A program made the position numbers and the translations under genes. This document shows, in pieces, positions 2,462 through 63,660 of a stretch of DNA of 64,000 bases. The stretch is from an uncultured Candidatus Saccharibacteria bacterium (GTDB lineage Bacteria > Patescibacteriota > Minisyncoccia > UBA6257 > 2-01-FULL-56-20): assembly GCA_964505005.1 (NCBI GenBank), contig CAZDFQ010000001.1:50458-114457 (forward strand). The letters are read 5' to 3'. Every line of letters starts with the position of its first letter. Positions within the stretch are counted from its first letter, which is position 1. The notes beneath the pieces were generated by a model that was not told where the DNA came from, did not search any database, and saw nothing but the letters and a program-made list of their open reading frames with translations.

Positions 2462-2631
2462 AATAGAATCCCAAATCTAATTTATTCAGAATAATATAAG
2501 TTTGGATAATTTAAAATCTCTAATCTCTAAATCCTAATTTCTAAACAATCTCAAATTTAAAAATTCAAAATGGTTTGAGATTTGATATTTGGATTTGTTT
2601 AAGATTTAGAGATTAGGATTTAGGATTTTAA
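2462..2631. repeat. composite palindromic intergenic repeat (family 1: AAATCTC/TAAATCC/TAATTTC units, two inverted arms)
   Basis: aaaatctctaatctctaaatcctaatttctaaacaatctcaaat ... atttgagatttgatatttggatttgtttaagatttagagattaggatttagg inverted arms seen directly. Confidence 0.7.
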
Positions 2632-3741
2632 TTATGTATATTTTGAAATATTTACAGCTATGCCACTTAAAGTTAGGAAAATCGCCAAAGCCGTACCGCC
2701 GTAACTGATAAAAGGAAGCGGCACTCCGGTTAAAGGCAGAAGTCCGGAAAGCGCGCCCATATTGACGATGGACTGAAAGGCCAGCAAGCAGCCGAAGCCG
2801 ACTAAAATTAATTGCCCAAATTTATCGCGTAAATCTTTAGCCAACCAGAAAAGCCGGAAAACCAGCAGGGCGAAAATGATTATCAGCGCGCCCGCGCCAA
2901 TGAACCCGAGTTCTTCGGCCGCCACGGCGAAAATCGAATCGCCGAAAGCCGATGGCAGATAGCTGATTTTGCTCGTCGAGCGGCCGTAGCCCAGGCCCCA
3001 TAAACCGCCGGAGCCAATGGCAATTAGCGCCTGATTTATCTGGTAACTCGCTCCCGTCGCATCATTTGCCGGTTTTAAGAAAGTGGTGATTCTTTGGAGC
3101 CGGTAAGGAGTAAACCAAATTATCAATCCCAGAAGCGCCAGACCGATAAAAGCGACTGTAAAGATGTGTCTTAATTTTGCGCCGCTGGAAAAATACATTA
3201 TCATTCCCGTGCCGAGAAGAATGACGACGGTGCTGGTGGCCGGTTGAAGAAACAGAAGCATGGCGATTAAGCCGGAAACAATCAAGAATGGTAGAAAGCC
3301 GGTGGAAAATTCTTCGCTTCTATTCATTTTAGGATTGCCCAACCAGGCAGCTAAATAAATAATGAAGGTCAGTTTGACTATTTCCGCGGGCTGGAACACG
3401 AAAGAACCGAAATTCAACCAGCGGTTGGCGCCGCCGCTCGCCACGCCTAATTTGGTGAAAACCAGCGCCAATAATCCCAGGCTGAGCAATAAAAGAATAA
3501 AAGCAATCTTCCGATAATTTTGATAATAAACCACCGAAGTGATTAAAAATCCTAGCAATCCGAATGAGAGCCCGTAAAAAATCTGATGTTTAAGATAGTA
3601 ATAGCTGTCTCCAAATCTCGATTTCCCCACTTCCGAAGAAGCGCTGGCCAAAATTACCAGGCCGGCCACGGTTAAAAGGAAGATAATGCTGACCAGAAAA
3701 TAATCCGGCCGATGCCCTCTTTTTATTAATTTGGTTGTCAT
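2632..3741 (-). CDS. ftsW: SEDS family cell division/elongation protein FtsW/RodA
   Basis: 369 aa polytopic membrane protein with typical FtsW/RodA C-terminal region; murG neighbour. Confidence 0.8.
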   Translation of the reverse strand: MTTKLIKRGHRPDYFLVSIIFLLTVAGLVILASASSEVGKSRFGDSYYYLKHQIFYGLSFGLLGFLITSVVYYQNYRKIAFILLLLSLGLLALVFTKLGVASGGANRWLNFGSFVFQPAEIVKLTFIIYLAAWLGNPKMNRSEEFSTGFLPFLIVSGLIAMLLFLQPATSTVVILLGTGMIMYFSSGAKLRHIFTVAFIGLALLGLIIWFTPYRLQRITTFLKPANDATGASYQINQALIAIGSGGLWGLGYGRSTSKISYLPSAFGDSIFAVAAEELGFIGAGALIIIFALLVFRLFWLAKDLRDKFGQLILVGFGCLLAFQSIVNMGALSGLLPLTGVPLPFISYGGTALAIFLTLSGIAVNISKYT

Positions 3742-3748
3742 TGTAGTT

Positions 3749-5287
3749 TCAAGCGCGTTTCAATATTTTCCCGTTAAATATGTTTTGAGGAACGCCGTCT
3801 TTGACAGCCACCCGGCCATTAACCACAACGAATTTTATCTCCACACCAAAATTTTTGGTATGGGGATTTGCTTTATTATTTCTGAAGACAACCAAGTCAG
3901 CGAAATTTCCTTCTCTTATTTCGCCTCGGCCGCGAAGATTGAATTTCTTTGCTGGTTCCAGAGTAATTTTTTTGATGGCTTCTTCGAGAGGCATCAAGCT
4001 TTCACGTTGAATCAGTTCCAGAAATTTTGTGAAAGTCGAGAAGGCGCGCTCTGGCTTGAAAATTCTTTCTTTCGGATTGTCTGGGAAACTGGCGGCGTTG
4101 GAAGCGACCAGCGAACGAGAATGACGAAGAGCGGCTTCGACCAGTTCCCGGTTGATATTCCGATAATGAATTACCGCCCGCAGTTTGGTGCTCCGCATCA
4201 ATCGGGAAAGCGCCTCGGCTGTGCCCTCTGAGCCGTATAATTCTTTCAATTCCGCCAAAGAATGGCCGACCAAAGATTCGTTTCTCGGCGCCCGACTGAC
4301 AATGAAATTTTCGCTCTGGATTGGCGGGAAATCTTTTTCGATTTTAGTTCTTTGCCACTCGTCTTCCAATAAGGCATTCATGGTTTCCCAGTTATCTTTT
4401 TGCGCCCAAATAGGCAAAAAAGTGTGAAGCGGAATCAGAATGGCGTCGTCGAGATAAAGGTCGAAATGGAAATCTCTATCGGCGGGCAAGCGGTCGAATT
4501 TTTCCAGCGCCTGCTGATAAAGATTTTCTTCGCCGAAATGCGGCAGAAAATGGCTGAGCAGGACTTTGACCGATGTCTCATTGGAAAGCTTTATCGTCTC
4601 GTCAGCCGATTCGAGCAGCTCGGAGCCGCTTTTCCGAAGATGAGTGGCATAGACGCCACCATAATTTTTTACAAGCTTAGCCAGAAATTTTATTTCCGAC
4701 TCCGACGTTTCCCGGCCATGGGCATAGCCCAAGCCGGTGGAAAGACCCAAGCCCCCTTCGGCCAAGGCCTGCTTCAGTATTTTGGAAAAAATTTTTAATT
4801 CGTTTTTAGTGAGATTTCTTGATGATTCGCCGATAAGGTCGCGACGGATGGTCGAATGGCCAATCAGAGTCCCGAAATTAACAGCCAACCTCCGTTTTTC
4901 CAAAACACTCAGAAACTCTTTCATCGTGTGCCAATTGACATTGATTTTATCTATGTCGGCCCATTTGCGGATGGATTCCAAGCTCCCATAAAGAAGCGGG
5001 GCGAGAGAGGCGCCGCAGTGACCGCCGATGATGGTCGTTGCGCCTTGCTTCAAAAAATCCTCCTGCCCCGGGTCGCTGAAAATTGTCAGACAATGGTCGG
5101 AGTCGGTATTAACATCAATGAAACCAGGACTTAAATAAGCTCCTTGGCCGTCAATTATTTCATCAGCGCCTCGGGAGGGAAAATTGCCGAAAGCCGAAAT
5201 TTTTTCACCACTGATGAAAATGTCGATTTTCGGCGGCAGTTTATAAGGAGAGCCGAGCACCTGGACGTTTTTGATAAGAAGGGTCAT
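3749..5287 (-). CDS. amidohydrolase family protein (D-aminoacylase-like; metal-binding HxH degenerate: GFIDVNTDSDH)
   Basis: 512 aa; N-terminal IKNVQV...GFIDV fold signature of Amidohydro_3 / N-acyl-D-amino-acid deacylase-like proteins. Confidence 0.5.
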   Translation of the reverse strand: MTLLIKNVQVLGSPYKLPPKIDIFISGEKISAFGNFPSRGADEIIDGQGAYLSPGFIDVNTDSDHCLTIFSDPGQEDFLKQGATTIIGGHCGASLAPLLYGSLESIRKWADIDKINVNWHTMKEFLSVLEKRRLAVNFGTLIGHSTIRRDLIGESSRNLTKNELKIFSKILKQALAEGGLGLSTGLGYAHGRETSESEIKFLAKLVKNYGGVYATHLRKSGSELLESADETIKLSNETSVKVLLSHFLPHFGEENLYQQALEKFDRLPADRDFHFDLYLDDAILIPLHTFLPIWAQKDNWETMNALLEDEWQRTKIEKDFPPIQSENFIVSRAPRNESLVGHSLAELKELYGSEGTAEALSRLMRSTKLRAVIHYRNINRELVEAALRHSRSLVASNAASFPDNPKERIFKPERAFSTFTKFLELIQRESLMPLEEAIKKITLEPAKKFNLRGRGEIREGNFADLVVFRNNKANPHTKNFGVEIKFVVVNGRVAVKDGVPQNIFNGKILKRA

Positions 5288-5367: not shown

Positions 5368-5497
5368 AAATTTCTAATTTCTAAACCCTAATTTCTAAAC
5401 AATCTCAAAATCAAAATCTCAAAACATTTTGGATTTTAAACATTTGGATTTATTTAGAGATTAGAAATTAGGATTTAGAGATTAATTATTCGGATGC
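5368..5497. repeat. composite palindromic intergenic repeat (family 1)
   Basis: ctaatttctaaaccctaatttctaaacaatctcaaaatcaaaatctcaaaa ... tttggatttatttagagattagaaattaggatttagagatt. Confidence 0.7.
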
Positions 5498-8602: not shown

Positions 8603-8740
8603 CTGAGTTCTTTGTTTAGCTATTCCGTATCATCCGCAGACAATTCGCATCATCCGCATTATGCTAAGCCGCTTGAACATAATGCTAATCTGCGAATGAA
8701 TGCGAATGATGCGAATAGTCATTCAGTTTTTTATTTTTAT
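8603..8740. repeat. intergenic repeat (family 2: GCGAATG/CATCCGCA units, palindromic)
   Basis: catccgcattatgctaagccgcttgaacataatgctaatctgcgaatgaatgcgaatgatgcgaatag. Confidence 0.6.
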
Positions 8741-10931: not shown

Positions 10932-12677
10932 TTAAGCCACCTCGTTATTGTAACAGCTTTCGCAATAAACATTTTTATATTTGTCAGGATTAAAAGTTAA
11001 TTTTATATCAACTCCGCATCTTGGGCATTTTCGGTCGTAAAATTTCAGACGCAAATCATAAATTTCCCGAAAGTATTGCAACCGGACAAGAGGGTGTTCT
11101 CTCGGCAATGCCAGATTATAGCGGCGATAGAATGAAAGTTCGTAGGAGGTCATCTTGAAATACTTATTGTTCTTTTCGTCGAAAATCGTTTTTCCCAAAA
11201 TGTCATCGGGTGCATCTTTAATGTCCGCCGGCAGTTCTGTTGATTTTATAATCTCACTTTGTACTTCGCTTTCTTGTAGAGGAATTTCGGATATGTCATA
11301 ACCATAACGACCGGCGTTTTCATAATCACGGAAACCTGGATAGCCAGCCGCCAAAGAAATTTTATAGGGGACAGATACAAGCTTAGGCGGGAAAAATTCG
11401 CCGTATTCGCTACTGCCAAGCATAGTAGATTTTATTTTGTCCACTAATTTCCAGTATTCATCCTCGTCATATTGCTTATTCAAAATACAAAATGATTTAT
11501 TGTTCAGGCCGATGCACCCGAAAATATCGTGGCAATTGCGACAGAGTTCGGAATATTCCGCGTTGCGGCAGTTATCCATTTGAAACGAGAAATGAACGTT
11601 GTAATTATCTCTCGTGCTGACAGTCATTAATTCATAACACAACTCCCCGCCCCCGCCGCCACTCACATCGTAAGAATCTTTATAGCCTAAGACACCGATG
11701 GTGTAGTTCACGTTTTGACACTCAGTGACATAATTGCACCAGTAACAATCTTTGGAATTCTCGATGTAATCGCCGACCGAATTGACCGAACGGAAATTGC
11801 GGTCCGGCTTATGAAGCGCCTCGCTTTTTATTTTTTTGAATTCCTTAATATATCGCTGAAGAACGTTGTAATCTCCTAAATTAATCTCTTTTAATTTCTT
11901 CTCGTATTCTTCCTTAGAAAGTTGCTGATTGCGGAAGTAGTATTTCTTATTCCTTAAATTTGAGGACATAAAACAATGCTCGCAATTCCGACAATCATAA
12001 AGAAAATAGCTTTCCAGACAATCCCGCGATTGCTCACAGAAAAAACAGCGATAGGAGTTGAATAAATTCTGGCAGGCATAACAAGTATCGCAATTCCAAA
12101 GCGATTCGCAGTCCACGCAATCTTTGCTGGCGTCGCAACACTCAAAATAATAGAGATTTTCTCCGCTTAAGGTGTCGAAGGTGAGATAACAATTTTTCAG
12201 ATTGGTTGAGGTATTGGTGTAGTCGCTGTTAATATTAGTTGTATCGGTCATAAGATTGGACCTGGGAACTTCGCGGCGCAACTTCTCGAACTGGCTCATA
12301 AAATTTTTGCTCTCGTCCCAGTTTCTTCCAAATCCCAGCGGGTCCCATTTGTCCGAAAACCAAACTTGATGTTCATATATTTTAAAAGGCGTTTGCGGGG
12401 GATAGGCAGCAATTATTAACTCTCCAGAATAAGCTGAGGGGACTTTAAAAAGTGAATGGACGTCCATGTTCGCAAGGCGTCTGCGGCAACGCTCTGCCGG
12501 ACTCAAAGTCGGCAGCGGCACGCGGATTCTTTTGTAGAATTGAATATCCTCGAGCCGGACATAGAATTTCTCGCCGGAAAACCGGCAGGTGCGCCACTGC
12601 CCGCCTTTTTCATCCAAAACTAAACTGGCAAAATATTTATCCAGGGCCTTATCAAATTGCGGCGTCTTAGAAATCAT
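10932..12677 (-). CDS. cysteine-rich repeat protein with C-terminal zinc ribbon (hypothetical)
   Basis: 581 aa; many degenerate repeats of the kind NCxxC/DCxxC (…CDASKDCVDCESLWNCDTCYACQNLFNSYRCFFCEQSRDC…) and terminal CPRCG...CESC; lies between two VirD4-like paralogs. Confidence 0.55.
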   Translation of the reverse strand: MISKTPQFDKALDKYFASLVLDEKGGQWRTCRFSGEKFYVRLEDIQFYKRIRVPLPTLSPAERCRRRLANMDVHSLFKVPSAYSGELIIAAYPPQTPFKIYEHQVWFSDKWDPLGFGRNWDESKNFMSQFEKLRREVPRSNLMTDTTNINSDYTNTSTNLKNCYLTFDTLSGENLYYFECCDASKDCVDCESLWNCDTCYACQNLFNSYRCFFCEQSRDCLESYFLYDCRNCEHCFMSSNLRNKKYYFRNQQLSKEEYEKKLKEINLGDYNVLQRYIKEFKKIKSEALHKPDRNFRSVNSVGDYIENSKDCYWCNYVTECQNVNYTIGVLGYKDSYDVSGGGGGELCYELMTVSTRDNYNVHFSFQMDNCRNAEYSELCRNCHDIFGCIGLNNKSFCILNKQYDEDEYWKLVDKIKSTMLGSSEYGEFFPPKLVSVPYKISLAAGYPGFRDYENAGRYGYDISEIPLQESEVQSEIIKSTELPADIKDAPDDILGKTIFDEKNNKYFKMTSYELSFYRRYNLALPREHPLVRLQYFREIYDLRLKFYDRKCPRCGVDIKLTFNPDKYKNVYCESCYNNEVA

Positions 12678-12759
12678 ACTTAAGATAAAATCCTAATTTC
12701 TAAACTCTAATTTCTAAATAATCCGCCGGGTGGCGGAAAATGACTAAACCCCAAAACTA
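12678..12759. repeat. composite palindromic intergenic repeat (family 1) with central CCGCCGGGTGGCGG hairpin
   Basis: aaatcctaatttctaaactctaatttctaaataatccgccgggtggcggaaaatgactaaacc. Confidence 0.7.
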
Positions 12760-15419: not shown

Positions 15420-15929
15420 ATGGCTGATGTCTTAAAAATAATCTTTGACCTCATCATCTGGATTTTCGTGCCGGTTATTTTAATAACCGTGATTTGGTTT
15501 TTGGCGTTTGCTTACAAAAGGACAGAAATCAAACGGCAAAAGTCCGCCCTGCAAGCTGGTTTCTGGGCCGGCCTGATGCTTTCCGTCATTTTCCTAATCT
15601 ATCAAGTAAATATTTTTTTGAAAATAGGCTTTCCGCAAAATGACATTTTCCAGGGGTTCAAGCTCTGGCTTTCACTGACCAGCGCGCTGGTTGTTTTTAT
15701 TCTAGCTCTTGGCGGCAAAAAAATTATTTCTCCGGCCTTAAGCGGCTGGCTGAATCTCCTCTTCACTTCAATAAGCTTATCGGCGTTCTTCCATTATATT
15801 TTTATCCGCACTTATAACGATGTCCTTCTTTCAGTTATTCTTGGCGCCGCTTTTGGTTTTCTGACGCACCTGGCGGCTTCGCCGTCGTCGCTAAAGGAAT
15901 TTTTCGGCCATCACCAATCGACGTTGTAA
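15420..15929 (+). CDS. hypothetical polytopic membrane protein
   Basis: 169 aa, ~4 hydrophobic helices; only plus-strand gene in a long minus-strand block. Confidence 0.45.
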   Translation: MADVLKIIFDLIIWIFVPVILITVIWFLAFAYKRTEIKRQKSALQAGFWAGLMLSVIFLIYQVNIFLKIGFPQNDIFQGFKLWLSLTSALVVFILALGGKKIISPALSGWLNLLFTSISLSAFFHYIFIRTYNDVLLSVILGAAFGFLTHLAASPSSLKEFFGHHQSTL

Positions 15930-16113
15930 AAATGCAAAATGACCCGCCCGCCTTGCTTCGCAACGCGAAGCGGGCAGGCAATTAAAAATGTCAAAAATGT
16001 TTAATTCCAAAATCCGACTTTAACATTTGGTAATTTTTCAATTTTGCCTTGTCATTTTGGATTTTTCCGCCAAAGGCGGATCAGCCTTGGGCTGAGATTT
16101 TTGATTTTTGAAT

Positions 16114-17559: not shown

Positions 17560-17729
17560 ATCTTAAGAAAATCCTAATTTCTAAATCCTAAATTCTAAAT
17601 AATCTCAAATGTTCTAAATCAAAATAAAAAATATGTTTATAATTTTGGATTTTGGTCATTTGTCCGCCATCTGGCGGATTATTTAGAAATTAGATAAATT
17701 AGATATTAGGATTTAGGATTTTTTATTAT
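17560..17729. repeat. composite palindromic intergenic repeat (family 1) with central GTCCGCCATCTGGCGGA hairpin
   Basis: aatcctaatttctaaatcctaaattctaaataatctcaaat ... gtcatttgtccgccatctggcggattatttagaaattagataaattagatattaggatttagg. Confidence 0.7.
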
Positions 17730-18209: not shown

Positions 18210-18354
18210 AAAAATAATAAATCCTAAACCCGAAATCCTAATTTCTAAATAATCCGCCAGGTGGCGAACAAATGACCAAAATCCAAAATTAAAAAGTTTT
18301 TAGAATTTGAAATTAGAATTTTGAATTTGTTTAGGATTTAGAGATTAGAGATTT
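18210..18354. repeat. composite palindromic intergenic repeat (family 1) with central CGCCAGGTGGCG hairpin
   Basis: aatcctaaacccgaaatcctaatttctaaataatccgccaggtggcgaacaaatgaccaaaatcc... Confidence 0.7.
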
Positions 18355-19707: not shown

Positions 19708-19845
19708 AATAACTTAATTCTAAATCCTAATATCTAATTTCTAATCAAATCCCGATTTCCCAATGACCAATGACCAAAAGTTTTAGGCATTAGATATTCT
19801 GGCGTTGGAAATTTATTAGAAATTAGTAATTAGAAATTAGAAATT
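19708..19845. repeat. composite palindromic intergenic repeat (family 1)
   Basis: ttctaaatcctaatatctaatttctaatcaaatcc ... ttagaaattagtaattagaaattagaaatttt. Confidence 0.65.
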
Positions 19846-20877: not shown

Positions 20878-21004
20878 TTTAGTGGTAACCGATGCCCTAA
20901 AGCTATAGCCATAAGACTCCAGTCGGACTTAATAAAATTATAAATTAGTTATACAAAATAGTCAAGCGAAGTGTACAGCAAAAGGATTCTTCCCGGGCGA
21001 GGCG

Positions 21005-22414: not shown

Positions 22415-22660
22415 AAATTTCTAAATCCTAATTTCTAATCTCTAAATAATCTCTTCGCCAGAGGCGAATCCGCCTTCGGCGGAAAAATTCAAATCTCAAA
22501 AAAATTATAAAAAGTTTTTGAATTTTAATCATTTGACATTTGGATTTGTTAATGAAGCTTCACTTCATCAATCGGTTCGCTCGGCAACCACAAGAATTTA
22601 TTTATTCTTGTATTGCCTAGCTGCCGATTGTAGAGATTAGGGTTTAGAAATTAGAGATTA
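22415..22660. repeat. composite palindromic intergenic repeat (family 1) with central GCCAGAGGCGAATCCGCCTTCGGCGG double hairpin
   Basis: ctaaatcctaatttctaatctctaaataatctcttcgccagaggcgaatccgccttcggcggaaaaattcaaatctc ... tagagattagggtttagaaattagagatt. Confidence 0.7.
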
Positions 22661-27578: not shown

Positions 27579-27581
27579 AAT

Positions 27582-27680
27582 TTGTCCGCCCTGAAGGATT
27601 CGAACCTTCGACCATCTCCTTTCCGCCAAAGGCGGATCAGCCTCTGGCTGAAAAAGGGAGCTGCTCTCTAAAATAAATGA
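27582..27680 (-). pseudogene. tRNA-Lys 3' fragment (from D-stem 3' side to acceptor end) carrying a ~32-nt GC double-hairpin insertion at anticodon-loop position ~37/38
   Basis: AGAGCAGCTCCCTTTTT[CAGCCAGAGGCTGATCCGCCTTTGGCGG]AAAGGAGATGGTCGAAGGTTCGAATCCTTCAGGGCGGACA; identical to the intact tRNA-Lys outside the insert; 5' half replaced by AT-rich sequence. Confidence 0.55.
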
Positions 27681-27685
27681 CTTTT

Positions 27686-27762
27686 GTCCGCCCTGAAGGA
27701 TTCGAACCTTCGACCATCTCCTTAAAAGGGAGCTGCTCTACCGGACTGAGCTAAGGGCGGAC
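27686..27762 (-). tRNA. tRNA-Lys (anticodon UUU)
   Basis: GTCCGCCCTTAGCTCAGTCCGGTAGAGCAGCTCCCTTTTAAGGAGATGGTCGAAGGTTCGAATCCTTCAGGGCGGACA; cloverleaf by eye, loop CTTTTAA; flanks extend the acceptor helix (AAATGACTTTT/AAAAGTCATTT). Confidence 0.8.
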
Positions 27763-28013: not shown

Positions 28014-28205
28014 ATTCGACCCTCTCCTTTCCGCCGAAGGCGGATCAGCCTCTGGCTGAAAAAGGCAGTTACTCTACCAGTTGAGCTACGGGGGATATTT
28101 ACTATCGACGAGCGCCCTGGTCCGCTAAAACTTGTTTTGCAAAGGGAGCTGCTGCTCTGCCTCCGCCAACCGGCGGATGAGCTACGGGGGGTTGTCTGCA
28201 ATCAA
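28013..28205 (-). pseudogene. two degenerate tRNA 5' fragments, each interrupted by the CCGCC..GGCGG hairpin element (one in anticodon loop, one in D-loop)
   Basis: CCCCCGTAGCTCAACTGGTAGAGTAACTGCCTTTTT[CAGCCAGAGGCTGATCCGCCTTCGGCGG]AAAGGAGAGGGTCGAAT and CCCCCGTAGCTCA[TCCGCCGGTTGGCGGA]GGCAGAGCAGCAGCTCCCTTTG. Confidence 0.4.
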
Positions 28206-31390: not shown

Positions 31391-31487
31391 CACATAATCC
31401 GAATGAATCCGAATAACATCCGAATGCCCCGAATAAATAAGTGGTATTCGTGTTATTCGGATGAATTCGGGTATTCGGATTATGCGG
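31391..31487. repeat. ~100-bp family-2 hairpin repeat (ATTCGGAT units), inverted partner of 36799..36896 (~93% identity as reverse complement)
   Basis: cacataatccgaatgaatccgaataacatccgaatgccccgaataaataagtggtattcgtgttattcggatgaattcgggtattcggattatgcgg. Confidence 0.65.
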
Positions 31488-36798: not shown

Positions 36799-36896
36799 CC
36801 ACATAATCCGGATACCCGAATTTATCCGAATGATACGAATACTGCTTATTTATTTGGGGCATTCGGATGTTATTCGGATTCATTCGGATTATGTGG
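36799..36896. repeat. ~100-bp family-2 hairpin repeat, inverted partner of 31391..31487
   Basis: ccacataatccggatacccgaatttatccgaatgatacgaatactgcttatttatttggggcattcggatgttattcggattcattcggattatgtgg. Confidence 0.65.
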
Positions 36897-39544: not shown

Positions 39545-39718
39545 AAATTTACAATCTCTAATTTCTAAATCCTAATTTCTAAATAATCTCAAATGTCCAA
39601 AATCCGAAGTTCAAAACCGTTTTTGAAATTTGAAATTAGAATTTTGAATTTATTTAGGATTTAGATATTAGGATTTAGGATTTCACATTATGACGACCTT
39701 TTTGCCCTTCGATTGAAC
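39545..39718. repeat. composite palindromic intergenic repeat (family 1)
   Basis: tctctaatttctaaatcctaatttctaaataatctcaaatgtccaaaatccgaagttcaaaaccgtttttgaaatttgaaattagaattttgaatttatttaggatttagatattaggatttagg. Confidence 0.7.
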
Positions 39719-40255: not shown

Positions 40256-40556
40256 ACTTTTGTCATAATGCGAATCTACGAATTAATTATGCGAATGCCA
40301 CGAAAATTTTTCGCATCATTAGTATCATGCTTAACAAAAAACCTGCCTCCAAAGCAGGTACATCGGCTGATTATTTTTCAGCTTTCAATCCTCGGCGGGG
40401 CTTATATATTACGATTGGCCCGCTGTCTTTGGAGTTAGAAAAAATAATAGCAAACACCAAAAATCTGTCAACTCTACATATAACTTTACTTCCTGCCGCC
40501 GCCAAAGTGTTATGCTATGGCATAACACCTATGTGCTGATAAGTTTTAGGCATTGG

Positions 40557-42830: not shown

Positions 42831-42975
42831 AATCGTAAATTTCTAAATCCGAATTTCTAAACAAATCCCAAAAATCCCAATTACCCAATAACCAATTAAC
42901 CTAATATCTAATTTGGGCATTTCCCTCGTTGGTCATTGATTAGGTCAATTAGGAATTAGGAATTAGTCATTTAAT
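42831..42975. repeat. composite palindromic intergenic repeat (family 1)
   Basis: aatcgtaaatttctaaatccgaatttctaaacaaatcccaaaaatcccaattacccaataaccaattaacc ... ggtcattgattaggtcaattaggaattaggaattagtc. Confidence 0.65.
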
Positions 42976-43677
42976 TTACTTATACTTCTCCAGCGCCTTC
43001 TTGGCAGCCGCCAGTTCCGCTTCCTGCTTGGAAGAACCCAGTCCTTCGGCAGTCAACTCCTCCTCGAAATAGACGCCGATTCGAAAGGTACGCTGATGAG
43101 CCGGCCCACTTTCTTCTAAAACCCGGTAGTTCGGCGTTATTTTAAGTTTCTCCTGGATTAATTCCTGGAGTTCACTCTTTGAATCTTTGTAACTTTTGGT
43201 TTCCAGAATTTCGGGAAGATGCGGCAGAATAAGCCGGCTGATAAAACCAACCGCGGCTTCATAGCCGGCGTCGAGATAAATCGCTCCGATGAGCGCCTCA
43301 ATAGCATTAGCCAGGATTACTTCTCTCGCTTTGGAAGTGTCGGCGCGTTCGCCTTTGGACATAAAAATATAGTCGTCCAAATGGAAGCTGGCGGCAATCC
43401 GGCCCAGCATCTGGTAATTTACCAGCGCGGCCCGAAACATCGTCAGCTGCCCCTCGGCCTCTTGAGGAAATTGTTGGAAGAGTTTTTCGCTGACTGCCAA
43501 TTCCAAAACAGCGTCGCCCAAATATTCCAGCCGTTCATTGTTGGGAAACGGCCAGTCGCTTCTTTCATTCAGATACGAACGATGAGTCAACGCTTCTCTC
43601 AGGAAATCTTTATTTTTAAAATTGAAACCGATAACGGCTTCGAGTTCTTCAAGGAGATGAGATTGATTATTATTCAT
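42976..43677 (-). CDS. rnc: ribonuclease III
   Basis: 233 aa; ERLEYLGDAVLELAVS RNase III signature plus C-terminal dsRBD. Confidence 0.9.
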   Translation of the reverse strand: MNNNQSHLLEELEAVIGFNFKNKDFLREALTHRSYLNERSDWPFPNNERLEYLGDAVLELAVSEKLFQQFPQEAEGQLTMFRAALVNYQMLGRIAASFHLDDYIFMSKGERADTSKAREVILANAIEALIGAIYLDAGYEAAVGFISRLILPHLPEILETKSYKDSKSELQELIQEKLKITPNYRVLEESGPAHQRTFRIGVYFEEELTAEGLGSSKQEAELAAAKKALEKYK

Positions 43678-43898
43678 TTCAATTCTAAAGATCTTAAAAC
43701 ATATTCGTATAATTCGTATGCCATTCGTAGATTAGGATTATATCTCAAGCAACTCGGCATAATGCGAATAATACCTGCCCGCCAATTGCCTTCTAAGATG
43801 ACTGGGATAATAATTTGGACATTTCCGACCGTTTTGAAATCACTACTAAAATTTGATTGACAGGCTTTGGCAGGCGGGCGAATTCTTATGCGAATTAT
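43678..43898. repeat. intergenic repeat (family 2, ATTCGTA/CGAATA units) with GCAGGCGGGCG hairpin
   Basis: catattcgtataattcgtatgccattcgtagattaggatt...cataatgcgaataatacctgcccgcc...ggcaggcgggcgaattcttatgcgaattattt. Confidence 0.55.
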
Positions 43899-44573: not shown

Positions 44574-44654
44574 TATTCCGAGAATCTCTAAATTCTAAGT
44601 TCTAATCTCTAAAATTTTGAATTTCGATATTTGAGATTGTTTAGAGATTAGAGT
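44574..44654. repeat. composite palindromic intergenic repeat (family 1)
   Basis: aatctctaaattctaagttctaatctctaaaattttgaatttcgatatttgagattgtttagagattagagtttaaagattagagatt. Confidence 0.65.
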
Positions 44655-47296: not shown

Positions 47297-47465
47297 ACTT
47301 TAAAAATCCAAATTTCAAAATCCAAATGACAAATTAATAACTAAAATTCAAAAAGTTTTTGACTTTTGGGCTTTGGATTTGATTTGAAATTTGGGCTTTG
47401 AAATTCGCCATTTAGGCTGTTTTGTTTGATGCCAAAAGACGAATAATAGATTTATAAGATGGGCT
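47297..47465. repeat. composite palindromic intergenic repeat (family 1, CCAAAT/ATTTGG variant)
   Basis: aaaaatccaaatttcaaaatccaaatgacaaatt...tttgggctttggatttgatttgaaatttgggctttgaaattcgcc. Confidence 0.65.
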
Positions 47466-49260: not shown

Positions 49261-49549
49261 TGCCGCGGGGGTGAATCGAACACCCGACGCCATGCTCTTC
49301 CATAAGGACTATATCATCATCCGGTTTTCAAACGGATGCGAGGCGCTTCCTCCGACGTAACGTCGGCGTACTCCCAAAGGGATAGTCTCTACACCTGCCC
49401 CGGCTAATGTCGGGGATTGGCTCGGGATTGTCCGCCCCATCCGTAGATGCCGGCGGAGTTCCCCCGAATTCACCTCGTTTTCATCTAAGCATTACTGCTT
49501 AGCGGCCCGAAGATTCCAGGCATGCGCTCTACCACTGAGCTACCGCGGC
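49261..49549 (-). tRNA. tRNA (probably Phe, anticodon GAA after splicing) interrupted by a ~217-nt group I intron in the anticodon loop
   Basis: 5' exon GCCGCGGTAGCTCAGTGGTAGAGCGCATGCCT (49549-49518), 3' exon GAAGAGCATGGCGTCGGGTGTTCGATTCACCCCCGCGGCA (49300-49261); intron (49517-49301) ends in G, preceding exon ends in U, and contains GGTGTAGAGACTA and CCGAGCCAA, near-identical to the Azoarcus tRNA-Ile group I (IC3) intron core; exon junction and anticodon are inferred. Confidence 0.65.
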
Positions 49550-49736
49550 AGTACTCGTTAATGATAACAAATTAGATTGAGCTTTCAAATAGAAACCCTT
49601 AAAGCGTTCCGCAACAGATCTGTTGGTAGCAGGACGGCGGTCATTTATTAAGGTCATAGATAACTCCGTAGTGTTATGCTACAGCATAACACCCGCCAAT
49701 ACTCTCTTTTTGCTTTCTACCACGATGAATTCATAT

Positions 49737-50867: not shown

Positions 50868-51016
50868 GGGTGGAAATAAACAGCGTAAAATTGCCTTGTC
50901 GCAAAAATTAGAGTATAGTTATTCTGAAAACAGAATGCCAAACCACGAATGGATGCGAATACCGCGAATAAAAACTCAATTCGGATGCATTCGTAGTCAT
51001 TCGTAGCATTTGTAGC

Positions 51017-51931: not shown

Positions 51932-52020
51932 TTTTAAATTTCTAAATTCTAATCTCTAATTTCTAATTTCTAAATAATCTCAAAATCCAAATTTCAAATT
52001 CTGAAACGAACGCCTGAATA
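51932..52020. repeat. intergenic repeat (family 1 units, single arm)
   Basis: ttttaaatttctaaattctaatctctaatttctaatttctaaataatctcaaaatccaaatttcaaattctg. Confidence 0.6.
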
Positions 52021-52103: not shown

Positions 52104-52462
52104 GAAGGAGGTGAAGGGAGAAGCTGTTTGACAAGGGCGACCGTTTCGGTTGGGCGATGTAGCTGTCAGGGCGGGGTGACCGTTGGGGTTGGGCGAGCTG
52201 TACGGATGGGGTGACCATTCTCCGGGGGCGAGCTGTTTCATCTGGGTGGCCGTAATTGAGGGGCGCAGTAACCAACTCGCTAAGGAGGTGATGAGAGCTG
52301 TGTTTATGGGGTGACCGTTTATCCGGGGCGAGCTGTATGAGGTGGGTGGCCGTCTTGTGAGGGCGAGCTGTTCTTTAAGGGTGACCGTGGCCCATGGGTG
52401 AGCTGTTGTAGCAGGGTGACCGTAGAAAATGGGCGTAGTAACTACGCCGAAGGAGGAATGAA
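52104..52462. repeat. array of alternating short direct repeats R1 GGGCGAGCTGT and R2 GGGTGACCGT, each followed by a variable 7-mer (35-bp period, ~8 units), upstream of the IS110-like ORF
   Basis: e.g. gggcgagctgt-acggatg-gggtgaccat-tctccgg-gggcgagctgt-ttcatct-gggtggccgt-aattgag...; units 1, 5 and the last are split by SD-containing inserts (AAGGAGGTGA...). Confidence 0.75.
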
Positions 52463-53248
52463 ATGGAGACGAGGAAGACGGGGCTGAACGAGTTGGAAGA
52501 GCGGATCGTCGTGGCTGCGTACAAGCTGGTGGAAGCCCAGCGGCAGCGCGGCCGCATCGGCCGGATAATCGGCAGAATCAAGCCGACAGCTGGCCGAAAC
52601 GGTTGGAAGCCCAAGCCGCCTGGGCCACTCCGGCATCTCCGCGTCCAGGCCTTCGCCGAAGTCGGCTTCAGCGAACCCGAATACGAGGCCTGGGAGCCGA
52701 AGATCGAGGAGTACCGACAGGAGCTCCAGGCGCTCGTGCGTGAGCATCCGGTTTGGACCACTTGGGCTGTCAAGGTGCCGGGTCTTGGGAAGACGATGAC
52801 CGGCCTGGTAATGGCCGCCATCGGCGATGTGACGCGGGTGCACACCGCGTCCGGGCTCTGGAAGTCGTTTGGCCTCCATGTGGACAACGAGACCAAAATG
52901 GCGGTCAAGCCCCAACCCGGCGTACCCGGTACGCTTGGCCATCCGTTCGCCAGGAAAATCCTGGGCGTGATGCGGTCAACCTACTTCCGCATCGGCGCCA
53001 AGGGCCAGGGCGGTTTCTATTACGACCGCTACCTGGAGAAGCGCCGGGAGTACGACCAAGCGCATCCGGACTGGCCCGAAGGCCGGCGCCTGGGCGCGGC
53101 AATCCGCAAGTTCGAGAAACTTCTCCTCTCCCACATCTGGGAGGTGTGGAGAAGGTCCAAGGGCCTACCGGTGTTGCCGCCTTATGCCGTGGCCCAACCC
53201 TGGAGCCTGCACAAAAAAATCAGGCCCGAGGAAGCGATGGCGCAGTAA
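52463..53248 (+). CDS. IS110-family transposase C-terminal (Transposase_20-like, HhH/IGD) domain protein lacking the DEDD RuvC-like N-domain; Arg-rich N-terminus
   Basis: 261 aa; VKVPGLGKTMTGLVMAAIGDVTRVHTASGLWKSFGLHVDNETKMAVKPQPG fits IS110 C-domain (IPGIG..TA..L.AEIGD..RF.S...L..Y.GL.P....SG); N-term RQRGRIGRIIGRIKPTAGRNGWKPKPP; strong [18 protein letters not shown]; ~62% GC. Confidence 0.5.
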   Translation: METRKTGLNELEERIVVAAYKLVEAQRQRGRIGRIIGRIKPTAGRNGWKPKPPGPLRHLRVQAFAEVGFSEPEYEAWEPKIEEYRQELQALVREHPVWTTWAVKVPGLGKTMTGLVMAAIGDVTRVHTASGLWKSFGLHVDNETKMAVKPQPGVPGTLGHPFARKILGVMRSTYFRIGAKGQGGFYYDRYLEKRREYDQAHPDWPEGRRLGAAIRKFEKLLLSHIWEVWRRSKGLPVLPPYAVAQPWSLHKKIRPEEAMAQ

Positions 53249-53552: not shown

Positions 53553-53686
53553 ATGCCAGGTAGTGAAAATTCGACTGTTATGCTATAGCATAACACCTAA
53601 ATAAGTCGTCATTATCCAGGCTAATCATCGTAAATAAATATATAAATGTTGGAATTGATAAACTAAATCGAATTTCTACTACCTTG
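53553..53686. mobile_element. second copy of the 131-bp MITE-like element, ending 1 nt before the cysS start codon
   Basis: CCAGGTAGTGAAAATTCGACTGTTATGCTATAGCATAACACCT...CGAATTTCTACTACCTTG; related palindrome GTGTTATGCTA(T/C)(A/G)GCATAACAC also at ~40517 and ~49668. Confidence 0.6.
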
Positions 53687-53687
53687 T

Positions 53688-55133: not shown

Positions 55134-55291
55134 ACAAATCCAAATGTCAAAATCCAAATTTCAAATCAAGCTCAAAGTTCAAAATTTTTATCATTTGGAT
55201 TTTGCCCGGCCTTCGCAGCCGAAGCGGCTGCTTCGGCGGAGTAGGCGATTTGATTTGAAATTTGAGCTTTGAAGTTTGGCATTAAAAATTT
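55134..55291. repeat. composite palindromic intergenic repeat (family 1, CCAAAT variant) with central GCAGCCGAAGCGGCTGCTTCGGCGG hairpin
   Basis: aaatccaaatgtcaaaatccaaatttcaaatcaagctcaaagttcaaa...gccttcgcagccgaagcggctgcttcggcggagtaggcgatttgatttgaaatttgagctttgaagtttgg. Confidence 0.7.
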
Positions 55292-56671: not shown

Positions 56672-56792
56672 CCATAAAAATCCAAATATAAAAATCCAAA
56701 TTTCAAATCAATGACTAAAATCAAAAATCCCCGCCTGCGGCAGGCAGGCAAAATTTGAGTTCTGGGATAGAATTTGATTTGACATTCGAGCT
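56672..56792. repeat. composite palindromic intergenic repeat (family 1, CCAAAT variant) with central CCCCGCCTGCGGCAGGCAGG hairpin
   Basis: aaaaatccaaatataaaaatccaaatttcaaatcaatgactaaaatcaaaaatccccgcctgcggcaggcaggcaaaatttgagttctgggatagaatttgatttgacattcgagctttgaaatttga. Confidence 0.7.
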
Positions 56793-58641: not shown

Positions 58642-58905
58642 AAAGTTAGAAATTAAAGATGAGAAATGAGAAATTAGGACTGCTCCAGAGATATTCTACA
58701 ATCGGTAGCGAGAAGAAAGCAATTGTAGGGCATTTGTTTTCGAGGAGCGAACCGATTGGTGAAGTGAAGCTTCATACAACTACAACTATTCGCATCATTC
58801 GCCTAACATTCGCAGATTAGCATTATGTTTGAAAACAAAAGGGAACCGGTCATCGCGCAGTTGCCCGAACTGCGCTCGCGGTTCCCGAACTCTTGGGCTT
58901 AGGGG

Positions 58906-61111: not shown

Positions 61112-61202
61112 ACTAAACTAATACCTCAGGCGATTTCGTTTTCTTATTTAATAAATTTATGAGTCCGCATCATTCGCCTAAGTATTCGCGATATCCGCAT
61201 TA

Positions 61203-62154: not shown

Positions 62155-62666
62155 TTGGATTTCTTGAATTTCTTCAGGCCTTCAGTCCTTCTCTCGTCTT
62201 TGGCATCCTCGTTCTTCAGAAAGTCCTCGTACTCTCCCCGCAGAAATCCAACCATAATTTCGCTTCTCGGCTTGCTCGTCCCCGGATAGCGCCAGGCGCT
62301 GATTATTTTAATAACTTCTTGTCCCTTGTCGCTTGTCCCTTTTCGCTTTTTTTGGAGCATTACCCAAATCTCCTGATTCCAGGTCTCTTGCCTCTTGTCT
62401 TCTCTTGCTGAAGCGGGTTTGCCCGCCCAAGTTTTCCCGTGGAAAATTTGGGTGGGCTGCATCATGGCGATGGTTTTCGGCGCGATGCCTTCTTCAATGC
62501 GCTTGGGCGAATGGATAACCCGCTTGACTCTCGCTTCGGACAGCCGGTAGAAACGCATTTTCTCGCGGCTGTGATAGGTCCAATATAACCGGGTAGTAGA
62601 AATTCGATTTATTTCAGCTGACATTTTTGTTTTTACTCGACTTGACGATACTATCCTGAGACACAA
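62139..62666 (-). CDS. DUF4258-like N-terminal domain protein with C-terminal extension containing GC-rich in-frame inserts
   Basis: 175 aa; ...YWTYHSREKMRFYRLSEARVKRVIHSPKRIEEG fits the DUF4258 H..R...R.IS...V..VI..P..IE pattern; inserts ~62300-62440 share gtctcttgcctcttg and gcccgcc(c)aag with the smc insert. Confidence 0.4.
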   Translation of the reverse strand: MCLRIVSSSRVKTKMSAEINRISTTRLYWTYHSREKMRFYRLSEARVKRVIHSPKRIEEGIAPKTIAMMQPTQIFHGKTWAGKPASAREDKRQETWNQEIWVMLQKKRKGTSDKGQEVIKIISAWRYPGTSKPRSEIMVGFLRGEYEDFLKNEDAKDERRTEGLKKFKKSKWFRQ

Positions 62667-62911
62667 TCTTCAATTATTATTGGCCATCGAAGACGGACAG
62701 ATCGAATTTTCACTACCCGGTAAAAGTTTTCGATTTCTGAAAAATCATTGAAGCAGAATTCCTGGCTGTTTACTGCTGTTTACTATTACTATATAACAAT
62801 TGTTATATAGTAATAGTAGAGCGCAGAACCGAAACCACTGCATTTACTATTATTAACGATTTCTCGGAGGGCGCGGGGATATAGAGGGACGGAATACGGA
62901 TATATTAAAAA

Positions 62912-63601
62912 TCAGAATAGGTTGGCCTCCCGATACTGACAGTAAAGACAATTCTCTGAAGAAGTCGGCGCTTCTTTCGAATCCAGAATGTTTCTGGCGT
63001 TTTTCAGGGCTGGCTCAATCCAGGAATCGTCGCCTTCATAAGGTTCAACGAAGATATCGAAAGAGAGAGCCGGCTCGGCGCTTTCAAAACCATTGGCTTT
63101 ATTGACTCTGGCAAAAACGATATAGCTCTTTGGTGAAACCGGAAAATCGTTTCTTTGCAACAGCCACTGGTAAATTTCGAGCTGGCGGCGATAGGAATCG
63201 TACATTTGGTGTTCGTTCGCGCCCGTGGCTTTGTAGTCAACCACGCTCAATTCGCCCTGGGGATTAACCCAGACATCGTCAACCGCGCCATAGACCAGAA
63301 AGTCAGTTGGTTGGTGATGGTGTTGGACGCCGGTAAAATTATTGCGCCACTGCTGGATTTCCGGAGTGTTATAGGGAATCGCTTCGATGCCGTGTTTTTT
63401 CATTATTGGATGCGGCTGGCCCTTTTCACGGTACTTATCAAATTCTTTTTTCAAAAGATAATCAATGGCGTTGTTGATGGTGTAAGGCGCCGGCGGCGGC
63501 CGTTTGATTCCCTTTTTCATTTCCAGCCAGAAACACCGCGGGCATTCTAAAAATAATTCAATTTTCGAACGGGAAAGCTTGAGCATAAATTCAAAATTCA
63601 A
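62912..63601 (-). CDS. PD-(D/E)xK nuclease with four flanking cysteines (Cas4/RecB-like Fe-S nuclease domain), stand-alone
   Basis: 229 aa; N-terminal CPRCFW, core GAVDDVWVNPQGELSVVDYKAT (D...D.K), C-terminal CLYCQY; no cas genes or CRISPR array nearby. Confidence 0.55.
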   Translation of the reverse strand: MNFEFMLKLSRSKIELFLECPRCFWLEMKKGIKRPPPAPYTINNAIDYLLKKEFDKYREKGQPHPIMKKHGIEAIPYNTPEIQQWRNNFTGVQHHHQPTDFLVYGAVDDVWVNPQGELSVVDYKATGANEHQMYDSYRRQLEIYQWLLQRNDFPVSPKSYIVFARVNKANGFESAEPALSFDIFVEPYEGDDSWIEPALKNARNILDSKEAPTSSENCLYCQYREANLF

Positions 63602-63660
63602 ATATCAAAAATCTCAGCCCGAGGCTGATCCGCCTTTGGCGGAAAAATGAAAAATAAAAT
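63602..63660. repeat. central double-hairpin element of family-1 repeats (GCCCGAGGCTGATCCGCCTTTGGCGG)
   Basis: caaaaatctcagcccgaggctgatccgcctttggcggaaaaatgaaaaataaaat. Confidence 0.6.

Follow-up and report, generated by a model that had tools for sequence, protein, structure and literature searches.

Foldback elements of inverted heptamer arrays turn over at gene boundaries in a Liptonbacteria-like genome and may be akin to 23S rRNA intervening sequences

Results

An inverted-repeat element, designated family 1, occupies about 15 of the 48 gene spacers in the window, the 64,000-nucleotide stretch of Liptonbacteria-like (Parcubacteria) DNA analysed here, and comparison with other genomes shows gain and loss of copies at the boundaries of genes. 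We lean cautiously toward reading family 1 as a dispersed foldback element whose copies in the window are ORF-less members of a cross-phylum family akin to the intervening sequences (IVS) of 23S rRNA, because of the states of its sites in relatives and because PF05635 genes in other genomes are bracketed by similar arms.

Family 1 consists of convergent heptamer arrays

The family-1 pattern CTAANNNCTAANNNCTAA has 30 matches in the window against 0.00 expected, all within spacers and all convergent, with plus-strand matches on the left of the spacer and minus-strand matches on the right. The motif CTAA-N3-CTAA occurs 30 times in intergenic and never in coding sequence, spacers making up only 18% of bases. 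Each arm is an array of degenerate 7-nt units, and the two arrays are inverted relative to each other around an A/T-rich core. Whichever strand is read, CTAANNN units make up the 5' side and NNNTTAG units the 3' side; A-runs open the arms and T-runs close them. The element usually starts 0-10 nt from a stop codon and leaves about 5-25 nt to the ATG that follows, and copies lie within conserved operons (dcw cluster, rplJ-rplL, secD-secF). Half element 12678..12759, read in the sense of the minus-strand gene 10932-12677, is a G-arm immediately upstream of its ATG.

Fifteen loci had been predicted to share one composite structure. Inverted arms of 19-62 nt with 71-95% complementarity were recovered there, but 63602-63660 lacks heptamer arms, and the units are not uniform: 47297, 55134 and 56672 represent a variant with CAAA/CCAA units, while 12678 and 51932 are half elements. 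Copies differ in the number and order of their units, and the pairing of arms is out of register. Copies in the window share mosaic blocks of 30-80 nt at 88-100% identity, with no full-length near-identical copies, which suits recent bursts less well than copies that are old or recombining; 17560-17729 and 18210-18354 match in inverted orientation over 54 nt at 96% identity. Where the same genome was assembled independently, assembly breaks fall inside elements.

The pattern CGAAT-N3-7-CGAAT-N3-7-CGAAT, with 11 matches against 0.07 expected, marks a second family of like foldback design, convergent like family 1 and with a unit period of about 9-11 nt. Both repeat families of the original prediction are therefore real, but that they fill nearly every spacer is an overstatement: family 2 occupies about 10 of the 48 spacers, two further palindrome families together about 5-6, and any of the four about 28, leaving about 20 with none. 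A TIGR-Tas locus was also observed.

Table 1. Repeat elements, hairpin modules and associated genes in the window
Feature	Coordinates	Strand	Details
Family-1 foldback, ftsW>murG spacer	2510..2631		C-arm units 2520-2544, G-arm units 2574-2623
Family-1 foldback, spacer of MBL-fold and amidohydrolase genes	5368..5497		50-nt arms, 74%
Family-2 foldback	8603..8740		ATTCGCAT/ATGCGAAT units
Family-1 half element	12678..12759		GC hairpin 12722-12737
Double GC hairpin, 30 nt	16066..16095	+	TCCGCC-AAA-GGCGGA and TCAGCC-TTG-GGCTGA, then GATTTTTGATTTTTG
Family-1 foldback	17560..17729		GC hairpin module 17663-17678, right arm
Family-1 foldback	18210..18354		GC hairpin module 18253-18268, left arm
Family-1 foldback	19708..19845		62-nt arms, core CCAATGACCAATGACC
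Family-1 foldback, secD>secF spacer	22415..22660		double hairpin 22454-22483 and extra GC-rich palindrome
Double GC hairpin in truncated tRNA-Lys copy (27582-27675)	27622..27651	-	insertion exactly between T36 and A37, anticodon loop
Intact tRNA-Lys(UUU)	27686..27760	-	reference for empty anticodon loop
Double GC hairpin in second, chimeric tRNA-like fragment	28030..28059	-	anticodon loop
Family-2 foldback	31391..31487		inverted copy of 36799-36896, 89% over 65 nt
Family-2 foldback	36799..36896		beside XerC/D-like integrase gene
Family-1 foldback, rplJ>rplL spacer	39545..39690		inverted arms and pattern matches
Family-2 array, weak	40256..40330		upstream of rplJ
Family-1 foldback, spacer of RNase III and SMC genes	42831..42975		pattern matches
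RNase III gene, candidate processor of long stems	42976..43677	-	Ribonucleas_3_3 4.7e-39, dsrm 5e-18
Family-2 arms around other sequence	43678..43898		nusB>rnc spacer
Family-1 foldback, short	44574..44654		inverted arms; right behind RNase HII gene stop
Family-1 variant, CAAA/CCAA units	47297..47410		inverted arms
Family-2 foldback	50868..51016		divergent spacer (rpsA / corA)
Family-1 solo C-arm	51932..52000		6 heptamers, after corA stop
CAAA-variant foldback, cysS>dnaB spacer	55134..55291		GC-rich hairpins in centre
CAAA-variant foldback, dnaB>recR spacer	56672..56792		weak arms, GC hairpin
Family-2 half element	58760..58850
Family-2 array, weak	61150..61200
Double GC hairpin, 30 nt	63614..63643	-	on minus (coding) strand, then GAUUUUUGAUAU

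Breadth and turnover in other genomes

An exact 18-mer of family 1 is found in at least 120 unrelated metagenome contigs with GC contents of 0.27-0.63, among them the Verrucomicrobiota contig L150. Together with one extra copy 4.5 kb beyond the window, this takes the family past a local duplication. Of 99 cases, 61 have a partner arm downstream of the 18-mer, whereas the upstream control gives 12 of 99, and a consensus of about 120 nt, non-repetitive core included, is common to elements of unrelated contigs.

In six syntenic relatives the family is present in other spacers or absent; the ftsW>murG spacer of L243 and L246, for example, is without the element found at 2510..2631. Some relatives have tight gene junctions of 2-7 nt where others hold an element of 130-150 nt. 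One Verrucomicrobiota site, between AP_endonuc_2 and Gfo/Idh/MocA genes, exists in three states: empty in L256 and L257 (6 nt) and in L258-260 (24 nt), filled by a 148-nt palindrome in L150, and, in L255, holding a PF05635 gene between heptamer arms of CGAA type. Empty and filled sites differ by sharp boundaries in relatives 90-96% identical. No clear target-site duplication was seen at the junctions; TAA stands at both junctions of L150 and L255, with flanks too diverged for proof. Because occupancy is non-orthologous in syntenic relatives, and because the same site is empty or filled in close relatives, family 1 behaves like a small mobile or fast-turnover element. The original proposal of a tRNA-derived, MITE/SINE-like mobile element is thus supported in its mobile half; the tRNA origin is not supported (see below).

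Four-helix-bundle genes between heptamer arms

Neither a four-helix-bundle gene nor a transposase was found within the 64-kb window, so the link to IVS rests on sequence-related elements of other genomes. The fetched DNA, about 1.7 Mb, contains eight PF05635-type ORFs, seven of which lie between inverted heptamer arrays, the PF05635 matches exceeding the Pfam cut-off and TIGR02436 matching too; one bracketed case, L056 (a Ruminococcus MAG), was fetched solely via the generic array pattern. ORFs adjoin the 18-mer arm in L127, L218, L145, L173 and L208. The full-length form would carry a four-helix-bundle gene of about 120-135 codons (PF05635 '23S_rRNA_IVP' / TIGR02436) in the loop between arms of family-1 type.

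Resident signals and replication slippage

The elements might instead be non-mobile gene-boundary signals kept in place by selection, each a bidirectional terminator or insulator whose start-proximal arm is the promoter of a leaderless or short-leader mRNA. We judge this unlikely. In its favour, the element fills its spacer from stop to ATG, with A-runs opening and T-runs closing its arms, and a U-rich stretch follows most spacer GC modules (described below) on the coding strand. Shine-Dalgarno sequences are missing from nearly all genes of the window, and TGnTATAAT stands 4-13 nt before the ATG in element-free spacers, both here and in relatives. The G-arm units read TAGAAT or TAGGAT, the 18-mer ends most often 12-14 nt upstream of an ATG, and of the solo half elements 25 face a gene start and 6 a stop. 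However, resident signals are hard to reconcile with occupancy that varies among syntenic relatives down to junctions of a few nucleotides, with the roughly 20 spacers that hold no family, or with an 18-mer shared by genomes of 27-63% GC and different phyla. Moreover, a long A/U-rich stem makes a poor intrinsic terminator, a simple promoter scan was not enriched (32 vs 26.8 +/- 5.3), and a stop-proximal arm in co-directional operons would drive antisense transcription.

A neutral origin by replication slippage or template switching in A/T-rich spacers, with heptamer microsatellites expanding and being copied inverted without mobility or function, strikes us as improbable. The variable unit number and order and the out-of-register pairing noted above agree with it, as do the variable unit number among Coxiella strains (PMC4990558), the similar palindromes of CCAGGNN, GAATAAW and TACGAAT units in relatives, and the generic CTAANNN arrays of many phyla. 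Slippage does not lead us to expect a consensus with a non-repetitive core common to unrelated contigs, sharp boundaries between empty and filled sites, or the specific link to a single gene family.

GC hairpin modules and the tRNA-Lys gene

The pattern CCGCC-N3-6-GGCGG occurs 11 times in the window against 0.08 expected. The modules, 15-30 nt long, have the form TCCGCC-N3-4-GGCGGA, with or without TCAGCC-N3-GGCTGA. A stem shows a compensatory double change from CAGCC/GGCTG to TCGCC/GGCGA, and the double hairpin at 22454-22483 is a compensatory variant, TTCGCC/GGCGAA; the 16066 and 63602 copies match over 45 nt at 98% identity. Originally described as central and general, the hairpin lies off-centre within one arm at 12678, 17560 and 18210, is doubled at 22415 and 63602, and occurs in only 5-7 of the 15 listed loci, eight being without it.

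The tRNA fragments do carry the hairpin insert, as had been noted, in the form of the 30-nt double hairpin at 27622-27651 and 28030-28059. ARAGORN and Rfam found no tRNA or tRNA-like match at the GC hairpins, even at E<=1. A perfect inverted repeat of 20 nt (AAATGACTTTTGTCCGCCCT) brackets the intact tRNA-Lys(UUU) gene. In truncated tRNA-Lys copies the double hairpin has been inserted into the anticodon loop, so the supposed relation to tRNA-Lys is reversed. The GC hairpins are separate terminator-like modules, precisely inserted in arms and in anticodon loops of tRNA-Lys pseudogenes. Only these modules look like terminators, which leaves the suggestion of bidirectional terminators partly tenable.

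That the GC cores mimic the tRNA-Lys acceptor stem, as a tRNA-derived SINE/MITE or as RNase P/Z minihelices punctuating polycistronic RNA, is already largely refuted and deserves hardly any credence: GTCCGCC (17560) and GGCGAAC (18210) resemble acceptor strands, at most 10-11 nt (TTTGTCCGCC / GGCGGACAAA) match the tRNA-Lys flanks, and the gene flanks AAATGAC/GTCATTT equal a family-1 core word, but not one hairpin has both GTCCGCC and GGCGGAC, the stems are generic (6 bp, TCCGCC/GGCGGA, loops of 3-4 nt, no T-arm equivalent) and confined to a minority of copies, the hairpin recurs with varying loops in unrelated metagenome and viral contigs, and its place in the tRNA fragments is the anticodon loop, not that of an acceptor-stem derivative.

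Discussion

RNase III cuts Correia hairpins, which can also carry promoters. Like MITEs and long palindromes such as Correia/NEMIS of Neisseria and ERIC/IRU of enterobacteria, family 1 is a non-coding inverted-repeat element of 80-250 nt in spacers, often within operons, and orthologous sites may have it or lack it. Unlike them, it has no transposase-bearing parent, clear target-site duplication or identified IHF site, its arms are tandem sub-repeats, and its ORF-bearing relative encodes a four-helix-bundle protein rather than a transposase. REP/BIME elements, mobilised by RAYT and proposed to act as terminators or mRNA stabilisers, are short GC-rich spacer hairpins, often in mosaics with other repeats, and in this resemble the TCCGCC-N4-GGCGGA modules; the latter lack a GTAG/CGTC tag beside the hairpins, and the window has no RAYT/Y1 transposase. 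Filamentous cyanobacteria have STRR, short tandemly repeated repetitive heptamers. They share with family 1 tandem degenerate heptamers, restriction to intergenic DNA and an unexplained function, but by description form direct arrays, not foldbacks with a shared core, and their unit sequences differ. Among the matches to the generic CTAANNN pattern, cyanobacterial contigs were frequent. We know of no report linking STRR to PF05635 genes. STRR are mentioned in PMC4748335 and PMC2670836.

IVS with an S23p/four-helix-bundle ORF occur in 23S rRNA of Leptospira, Coxiella, Brucella and Xanthomonas (PMC4990558). The IVS of Coxiella is a selfish element whose 28-bp stem is made by terminal inverted repeats, with the S23p ORF in the loop and two to three tandem heptamers upstream of it, and is excised by RNase III (PMC4990558). 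The architecture of the full form (inverted-repeat stem, loop ORF of the PF05635/TIGR02436 family, variable-number tandem heptamers adjoining it) is that described for the selfish IVS, here between protein genes; ORF decay and ORF-less forms are further likenesses, and the host has RNase III. Family 1 differs in lying outside helix 25/45 of 23S rRNA, in arms that are themselves long CTAANNN arrays (the Coxiella heptamer is GACAGAT), in numbering dozens of copies without an ORF in a genome region, and in that its cleavage by RNase III is proposed by analogy. Descent may have gone either way, by loss of the ORF from a cassette or by its capture in a palindrome's loop.

Predicted hairpin stability has no sense-strand bias (window 7 vs 5; metagenome 13 vs 19, p=0.35) and no consensus structure emerged from RNAalifold, so there is no sign of selection acting on an RNA structure. 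Copies would be co-transcribed with flanking genes and fold into A/U-rich stems of 25-60 bp, and RNase III may cut these as it does IVS stems, separating the cistrons; the processing of polycistronic transcripts originally envisaged is plausible by this route, not by RNase P/Z. In a host whose genes mostly lack Shine-Dalgarno sequences, the start-proximal arm, an array of -10-like hexamers, may also act as a promoter or leader.

Family 1 and other foldbacks in the window

Much of the spacer DNA in the window is occupied by foldback elements, of which family 1, with arms made of CTAANNN and NNNTTAG heptamers, is the most frequent. The family-1 pattern CTAANNNCTAANNNCTAA has 30 matches against 0.00 expected (100 shuffles), all of them in spacers; for CTAA-N3-CTAA the count is likewise 30 in spacers, with none in coding DNA. 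Matches to CTAANNNCTAANNNCTAA at the left of a spacer lie on the plus strand and those at the right on the minus strand, so the arrays form inverted arms. Family 2, reported as built of ATTCGnAT/CGAATG units, is also real, with 11 convergent matches to its CGAAT unit against 0.07 expected, and has the same foldback design. The original prediction was largely right in this, but overstated. It had two families filling nearly every spacer, whereas of 48 spacers about 15 hold family 1, about 10 family 2, 5-6 two further palindrome families, and about 20 no family at all. A repeat finder recovered inverted arms at the family-1 loci that it listed (19-62 nt long, 71-95% complementary), although two of these are half elements and a third holds GC hairpins only (see table).

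Family-1 elements are 80-250 nt long, contain no ORF, and number 14-15 in 64 kb. In the sense of the gene, a typical copy begins 0-10 nt past the stop codon (usually TAA) with three to five CTAANNN units (the C-arm), followed by CTAAAYAA, an A-rich, G-poor core (ATCCAAAT, AATGACC) and a short loop. The 3' half is the mirror image, closing with three to five NNNTTAG units (the G-arm) about 5-25 nt before the ATG. Copies have blocks of 30-80 nt in common, at 88-100% identity, and are not identical over their full length. They stand within the conserved operons ftsW-murG, secD-secF and rplJ-rplL. For many spacers with an element, the folding energy is well under that of shuffled controls (minimum free energy between -30 and -90 kcal/mol, z reaching -11). 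The DNA that carries them has a GC content of 42-55%, most of its genes on the minus strand, and a Pfam gene set typical of candidate phyla: FtsW, MurG, ComEC, TrmD, VirD4-like ATPases, SecDF, DnaK/GrpE/DnaJ, L10, L7/L12, SMC, RNase III, NusB, S1, DnaB and RecR. Among named FtsW homologues, the nearest (70-75% identical) come from Candidatus Liptonbacteria and further Parcubacteria.

Features of the window and of related contigs (window positions unless a contig is named)
Feature	Position	Strand	Remarks
Family-1 variant with CAAA/CCAA units	47297, 55134, 56672		
Family-1 half elements	12678, 51932		
GC hairpins only	63602		
GC module TCCGCC-N4-GGCGGA	12722, 17663, 18253		off-centre within one arm, either orientation
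Third palindrome family, GGTAGTGAAAATTCGA ... TCGAATTTCTACTACC	38109-38235, 62588-62721, ~53640-53687; contig L244, 15731-15875, 17707-17852		
Fourth palindrome family, built on TATATCACAATTGTGATATA	28883-28981, 62773-62826, ~39100		
RNase III gene	42976-43677		Pfam
Two GIY-YIG nuclease ORFs	~27282-27580, ~27800-28012	-	inserted next to or within truncated, chimeric tRNA-Lys-like copies
tRNA gene, apparently tRNA-Phe(GAA)	49285-49560	-	nucleotides 33 and 34 separated by a group I intron (Rfam RF00028, 63.6 bits)
TIGR-Tas locus	52122-53248		
TIGR array	52122-52436		eight tandem 35-36-nt units
LAGLIDADG homing-endonuclease gene	contig L001, 4987-5541		between M23 peptidase gene and murC, same genome just beyond the window

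Family 2 recurs in other spacers of relatives and in metagenome contigs that also bear family 1. Two of its copies, 31391-31487 and 36799-36896, are 89% identical, inverted with respect to each other, and bracket a 5.3-kb dnaK-grpE segment, with a XerC/D-like integrase gene (36867-37880) adjoining; from this arrangement, the segment could be a substrate for inversion. The right arm of the third palindrome family stops 3-6 nt before start codons, and the family is found at other sites in a Liptonbacteria relative. In four metagenome loci (L129, L130, L205, L238) a family-1 foldback is central in another widespread inverted repeat, GTCATTGCGAG...GGCAATCTC, so that small palindromes are nested within each other.

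Dispersal, gain and loss at gene boundaries

The repeats are not restricted to this region, a case that the original prediction had left open. One further copy lies 4.5 kb outside the window in DNA from the same genome, represented by two 7-kb Logan contigs, and Logan contigs of this genome, which are independent assemblies, terminate within family-1 copies. At least 120 metagenome contigs contain the exact 18-mer CTAAATCCTAATTTCTAA; they come from many environments, span 0.27 to 0.63 in GC and, among the matches listed, show no overlap with the window. There it is set in a family-1-type foldback of about 120-150 nt with the common core; a partner arm lies downstream of it in 61 of 99 cases, compared with 12 of 99 for the upstream control. 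One such contig, L150 (59% GC), belongs to Verrucomicrobiota, judged from its flanking protein. A generic pattern of four CTAANNN units, which is unspecific, found arrays in many phyla among the matches listed, including complete foldbacks in Patescibacteria MAGs. Viral contigs contain the 18-mer in only five cases and the double GC hairpin in one.

Related genomes carry the family as well, though not at fixed places. The gene order trmD-comEC-MBL-amidohydrolase-ftsW-murG-gltX is conserved in six relatives, whose elements are in different spacers or absent. The amidohydrolase gene and ftsW are 7 nt apart in the window and 2 nt apart in relative L244, but relatives L243 and L245 have a 130-150-nt element between them. 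The clearest example is a Verrucomicrobiota site bounded by an AP_endonuc_2 stop codon and a Gfo/Idh/MocA start codon. The spacer there is a 148-nt family-1 foldback in L150, 6 nt in L256 and L257 (94% protein identity to L150) and 24 nt in L258-260 (90%). In L255 (96%), the same spacer contains a 135-aa gene flanked by CGAA-type heptamer arms. These comparisons show that family-1 foldbacks are dispersed, are gained and lost at gene boundaries, and are related to a gene-bearing cassette. Between L150 and L255 every arm unit differs alike, with CTAA in the one and CGAA in the other; either the heptamers changed in concert or another subfamily was swapped in. The CGAA-type arms in L255 look similar to family 2's ATCCGAA units.

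A four-helix-bundle gene and likeness to rRNA intervening sequences

The L255 gene belongs to PF05635 (23S_rRNA_IVP), equivalent to TIGR02436 (four helix bundle protein), and is related to PDB 2RLD. Five further contigs (L127, L218, L145, L173, L208) have a PF05635 gene directly inside the 18-mer arm, in the order C-arm, ORF, inner right half, G-arm, next host gene. Over the roughly 1.7 Mb of DNA examined, inverted heptamer arrays bracket seven of eight PF05635-type ORFs. One of the seven, in the Ruminococcus MAG contig L056, was selected by the generic heptamer-array pattern alone; its ORF, which matches PF05635 at 1.5e-42, has (TTAGTGG)n on one side and (CTAACCA)n on the other. None of the window's own family-1 copies has a PF05635 ORF, and no relative was confirmed when viral contigs were searched with the four-helix-bundle protein. 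Two candidates were discarded: the ORF at 17730-18209, between mirrored modules, is not a PF05635 protein, and in L198, where a family-2 arm seemed to adjoin a four-helix-bundle-like C-terminus, the gene is rplJ.

The unexpected relative of family 1 is probably the intervening sequence (IVS) of rRNA. The original suggestion of a mobile element was right in kind, with the relationship to an rRNA IVS and not to tRNA. In Coxiella, the 23S rRNA IVS is a selfish element whose terminal inverted repeats pair into a 28-bp stem, with an S23p four-helix-bundle ORF lying in its loop, two or three tandem heptamers (the number varies) upstream of the ORF, and excision by RNase III; authors have suspected since 1993 that it is mobile and that the ORF serves mobility (PMC4990558). 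Common to both are the stem, the heptamers and the ORF family, the last in relatives of family 1 but not in window copies. Family 1 differs in its location in protein-gene spacers, in its arms, which consist of heptamers throughout, and in the number of its copies. All its copies lie between protein-coding genes and not in 23S helix 25/45, the window having no rRNA, and by this location family 1 falls outside the rRNA IVS class.

A miniature inverted-repeat element (MITE) would also be small, non-coding and dispersed, with terminal inverted repeats and presence/absence polymorphism at orthologous sites, all of which family 1 has. However, its ORF-bearing relatives encode the PF05635 protein and not a transposase, and no transposase was found within the window. 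In L150 and L255 each junction has TAA, with flanks too diverged to establish a target-site duplication; at other copies we found no consistent direct repeat or target motif, and enrichment of TAA stops at elements is not significant (7/8 versus 26/44). With no transposase parent and target duplication unproven, family 1 lies outside the classical MITE class. It works like both an rRNA IVS and a MITE.

GC hairpins as separate modules

The original prediction placed a GC hairpin at the centre of the composite structure and read its core as a mimic of the tRNA-Lys acceptor stem. Neither point holds. At three loci the module is off-centre (see table), and most family-1 copies have no hairpin at all. 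A 30-nt pair, TCAGCC-N3-GGCTGA with TCCGCC-N3/4-GGCGGA, has five copies; in one of them the stem is a compensatory TTCGCC/GGCGAA. At 27582-27675, a truncated tRNA-Lys copy matches the intact gene in all but these 30 nt, which lie exactly between T36 and A37; this bears out the reported insertion in the tRNA fragments of 27582-28205, though not as acceptor-stem mimicry. In the metagenome locus L202 the heptamer array is continuous once the pair is removed, and at 22454 the flanks rejoin as family 1's usual core, AATCTC joined to AAAAT. From these three junctions the pair is an insertion. The GC hairpins are modules separate from the family-1 arms; in a viral contig, the pair adjoins a different heptamer array.

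On the coding strand, U-rich sequence follows most spacer copies of the GC module. Modules 12737-12722(-) and 16081-16095(+) pass a terminator scan, 17663 is oriented oppositely, and the module at 63614 is followed by GAUUUUUGAU; terminator-like sites in the window number 41 versus 28 +/- 5. Flanks of the hairpins are AATAA/TTTG and AAAT. REP/BIME identity was rejected, since no GTAG/CGTC tag stands beside the hairpins and neither a Y1 transposase nor a RAYT gene occurs within the window. An origin from tRNA, or a tRNA-like minihelix, is wrong: there is no cloverleaf and no acceptor-T-arm helix with T-loop, stems are 6 bp, ARAGORN finds only two true tRNAs in the window and nothing at the hairpins, and Rfam gives no match there at gathering score, nor at E<=1 over 15900-22700.

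The GIY-YIG and tRNA-like region (27282-28215, minus strand) lies just downstream of the intact tRNA-Lys gene and includes a third tRNA-like piece, with TCCGCCGGTTGGCGGA in the region of its D-loop.

Possible roles at gene boundaries

Family-1 elements would be co-transcribed with flanking genes, and their stems would then be cleaved by RNase III. Fold energies and G-U pairs show no bias of the kind expected from sense-strand RNA selection, and RNAalifold finds no consensus structure in 38 aligned elements; the palindromy is thus best regarded as a feature belonging to the DNA element. Half elements that stand alone point towards gene starts in 25 cases and towards stops in 6, which hints at co-option. 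G-arm units are TAGAAT or TAGGAT, and the distance from the 18-mer to the ATG past it is most often 12-14 nt. Shine-Dalgarno sequences are nearly absent at gene starts in the window and in relatives L243-L248, where many genes with element-free spacers have TGnTATAAT 4-13 nt before the ATG; this suggests that mRNAs of these Parcubacteria have very short leaders or none. Taken together, these features indicate that the start-proximal arm may be a promoter or leader, which consensus scans do not settle, promoter and terminator scans of the window rising hardly above shuffles.

Other elements of the same DNA

The unit of the TIGR array, AGCTGT-[~7-8 variable]-GGGTGACCGT-[~7-8 variable]-GGGCGA, has the dual-repeat, dual-spacer layout defined in PMC12045711. 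Directly downstream, a 261-aa ORF without the N-terminal RuvC part has matches to TasR (structure 9MTY, E 6e-11) and, at 1.4e-21, which is below cut-off, to NCBIfam TIGR_Tas_endo. A TIGR array was taken to have two alternating 8-12-nt repeats, ~9-nt spacers, ~36-nt units and an adjacent Nop-domain Tas gene; families 1 and 2, dispersed and with 7-11-nt units and no spacers, were rejected as such arrays. ARAGORN misses the interrupted gene, apparently tRNA-Phe, which is followed by a 120-aa zinc-ribbon-like ORF (48599-48961). The LAGLIDADG gene adds to the selfish-element load of this genome.

Discussion

Genes for four-helix-bundle S23p/23S rRNA IVS proteins rank with the most common small bacterial genes that lack an explanation, and where rRNA intervening sequences come from has been an open question since the 1990s. 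We propose, tentatively, that the IVS is no peculiarity of rRNA and is one face of a cross-phylum mobile foldback, with heptamer-array arms and an S23p/Avd-like gene, that colonises gene boundaries. Its ORF-less derivatives in tiny CPR genomes would make up a large share of the spacers, where they would provide both punctuation cut by RNase III and a promoter or leader for the gene that follows, and the protein might bind the heptamer arrays. Neither sequence-based nor topic-based literature searches turned up a description of these foldbacks or of their link to PF05635 genes.

Inverted CTAANNN arrays provide a DNA signature that brackets PF05635 genes and persists as ORF-less foldbacks, and so a handle for tracing the element across genomes, its movement, and the binding target of the protein. 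Family-1 copies also explain breaks of short-read assemblies at gene boundaries in such genomes. If the proposal is true, RNase III processing between cistrons is predicted, and much of the non-coding DNA in compact CPR genomes would be accounted for.
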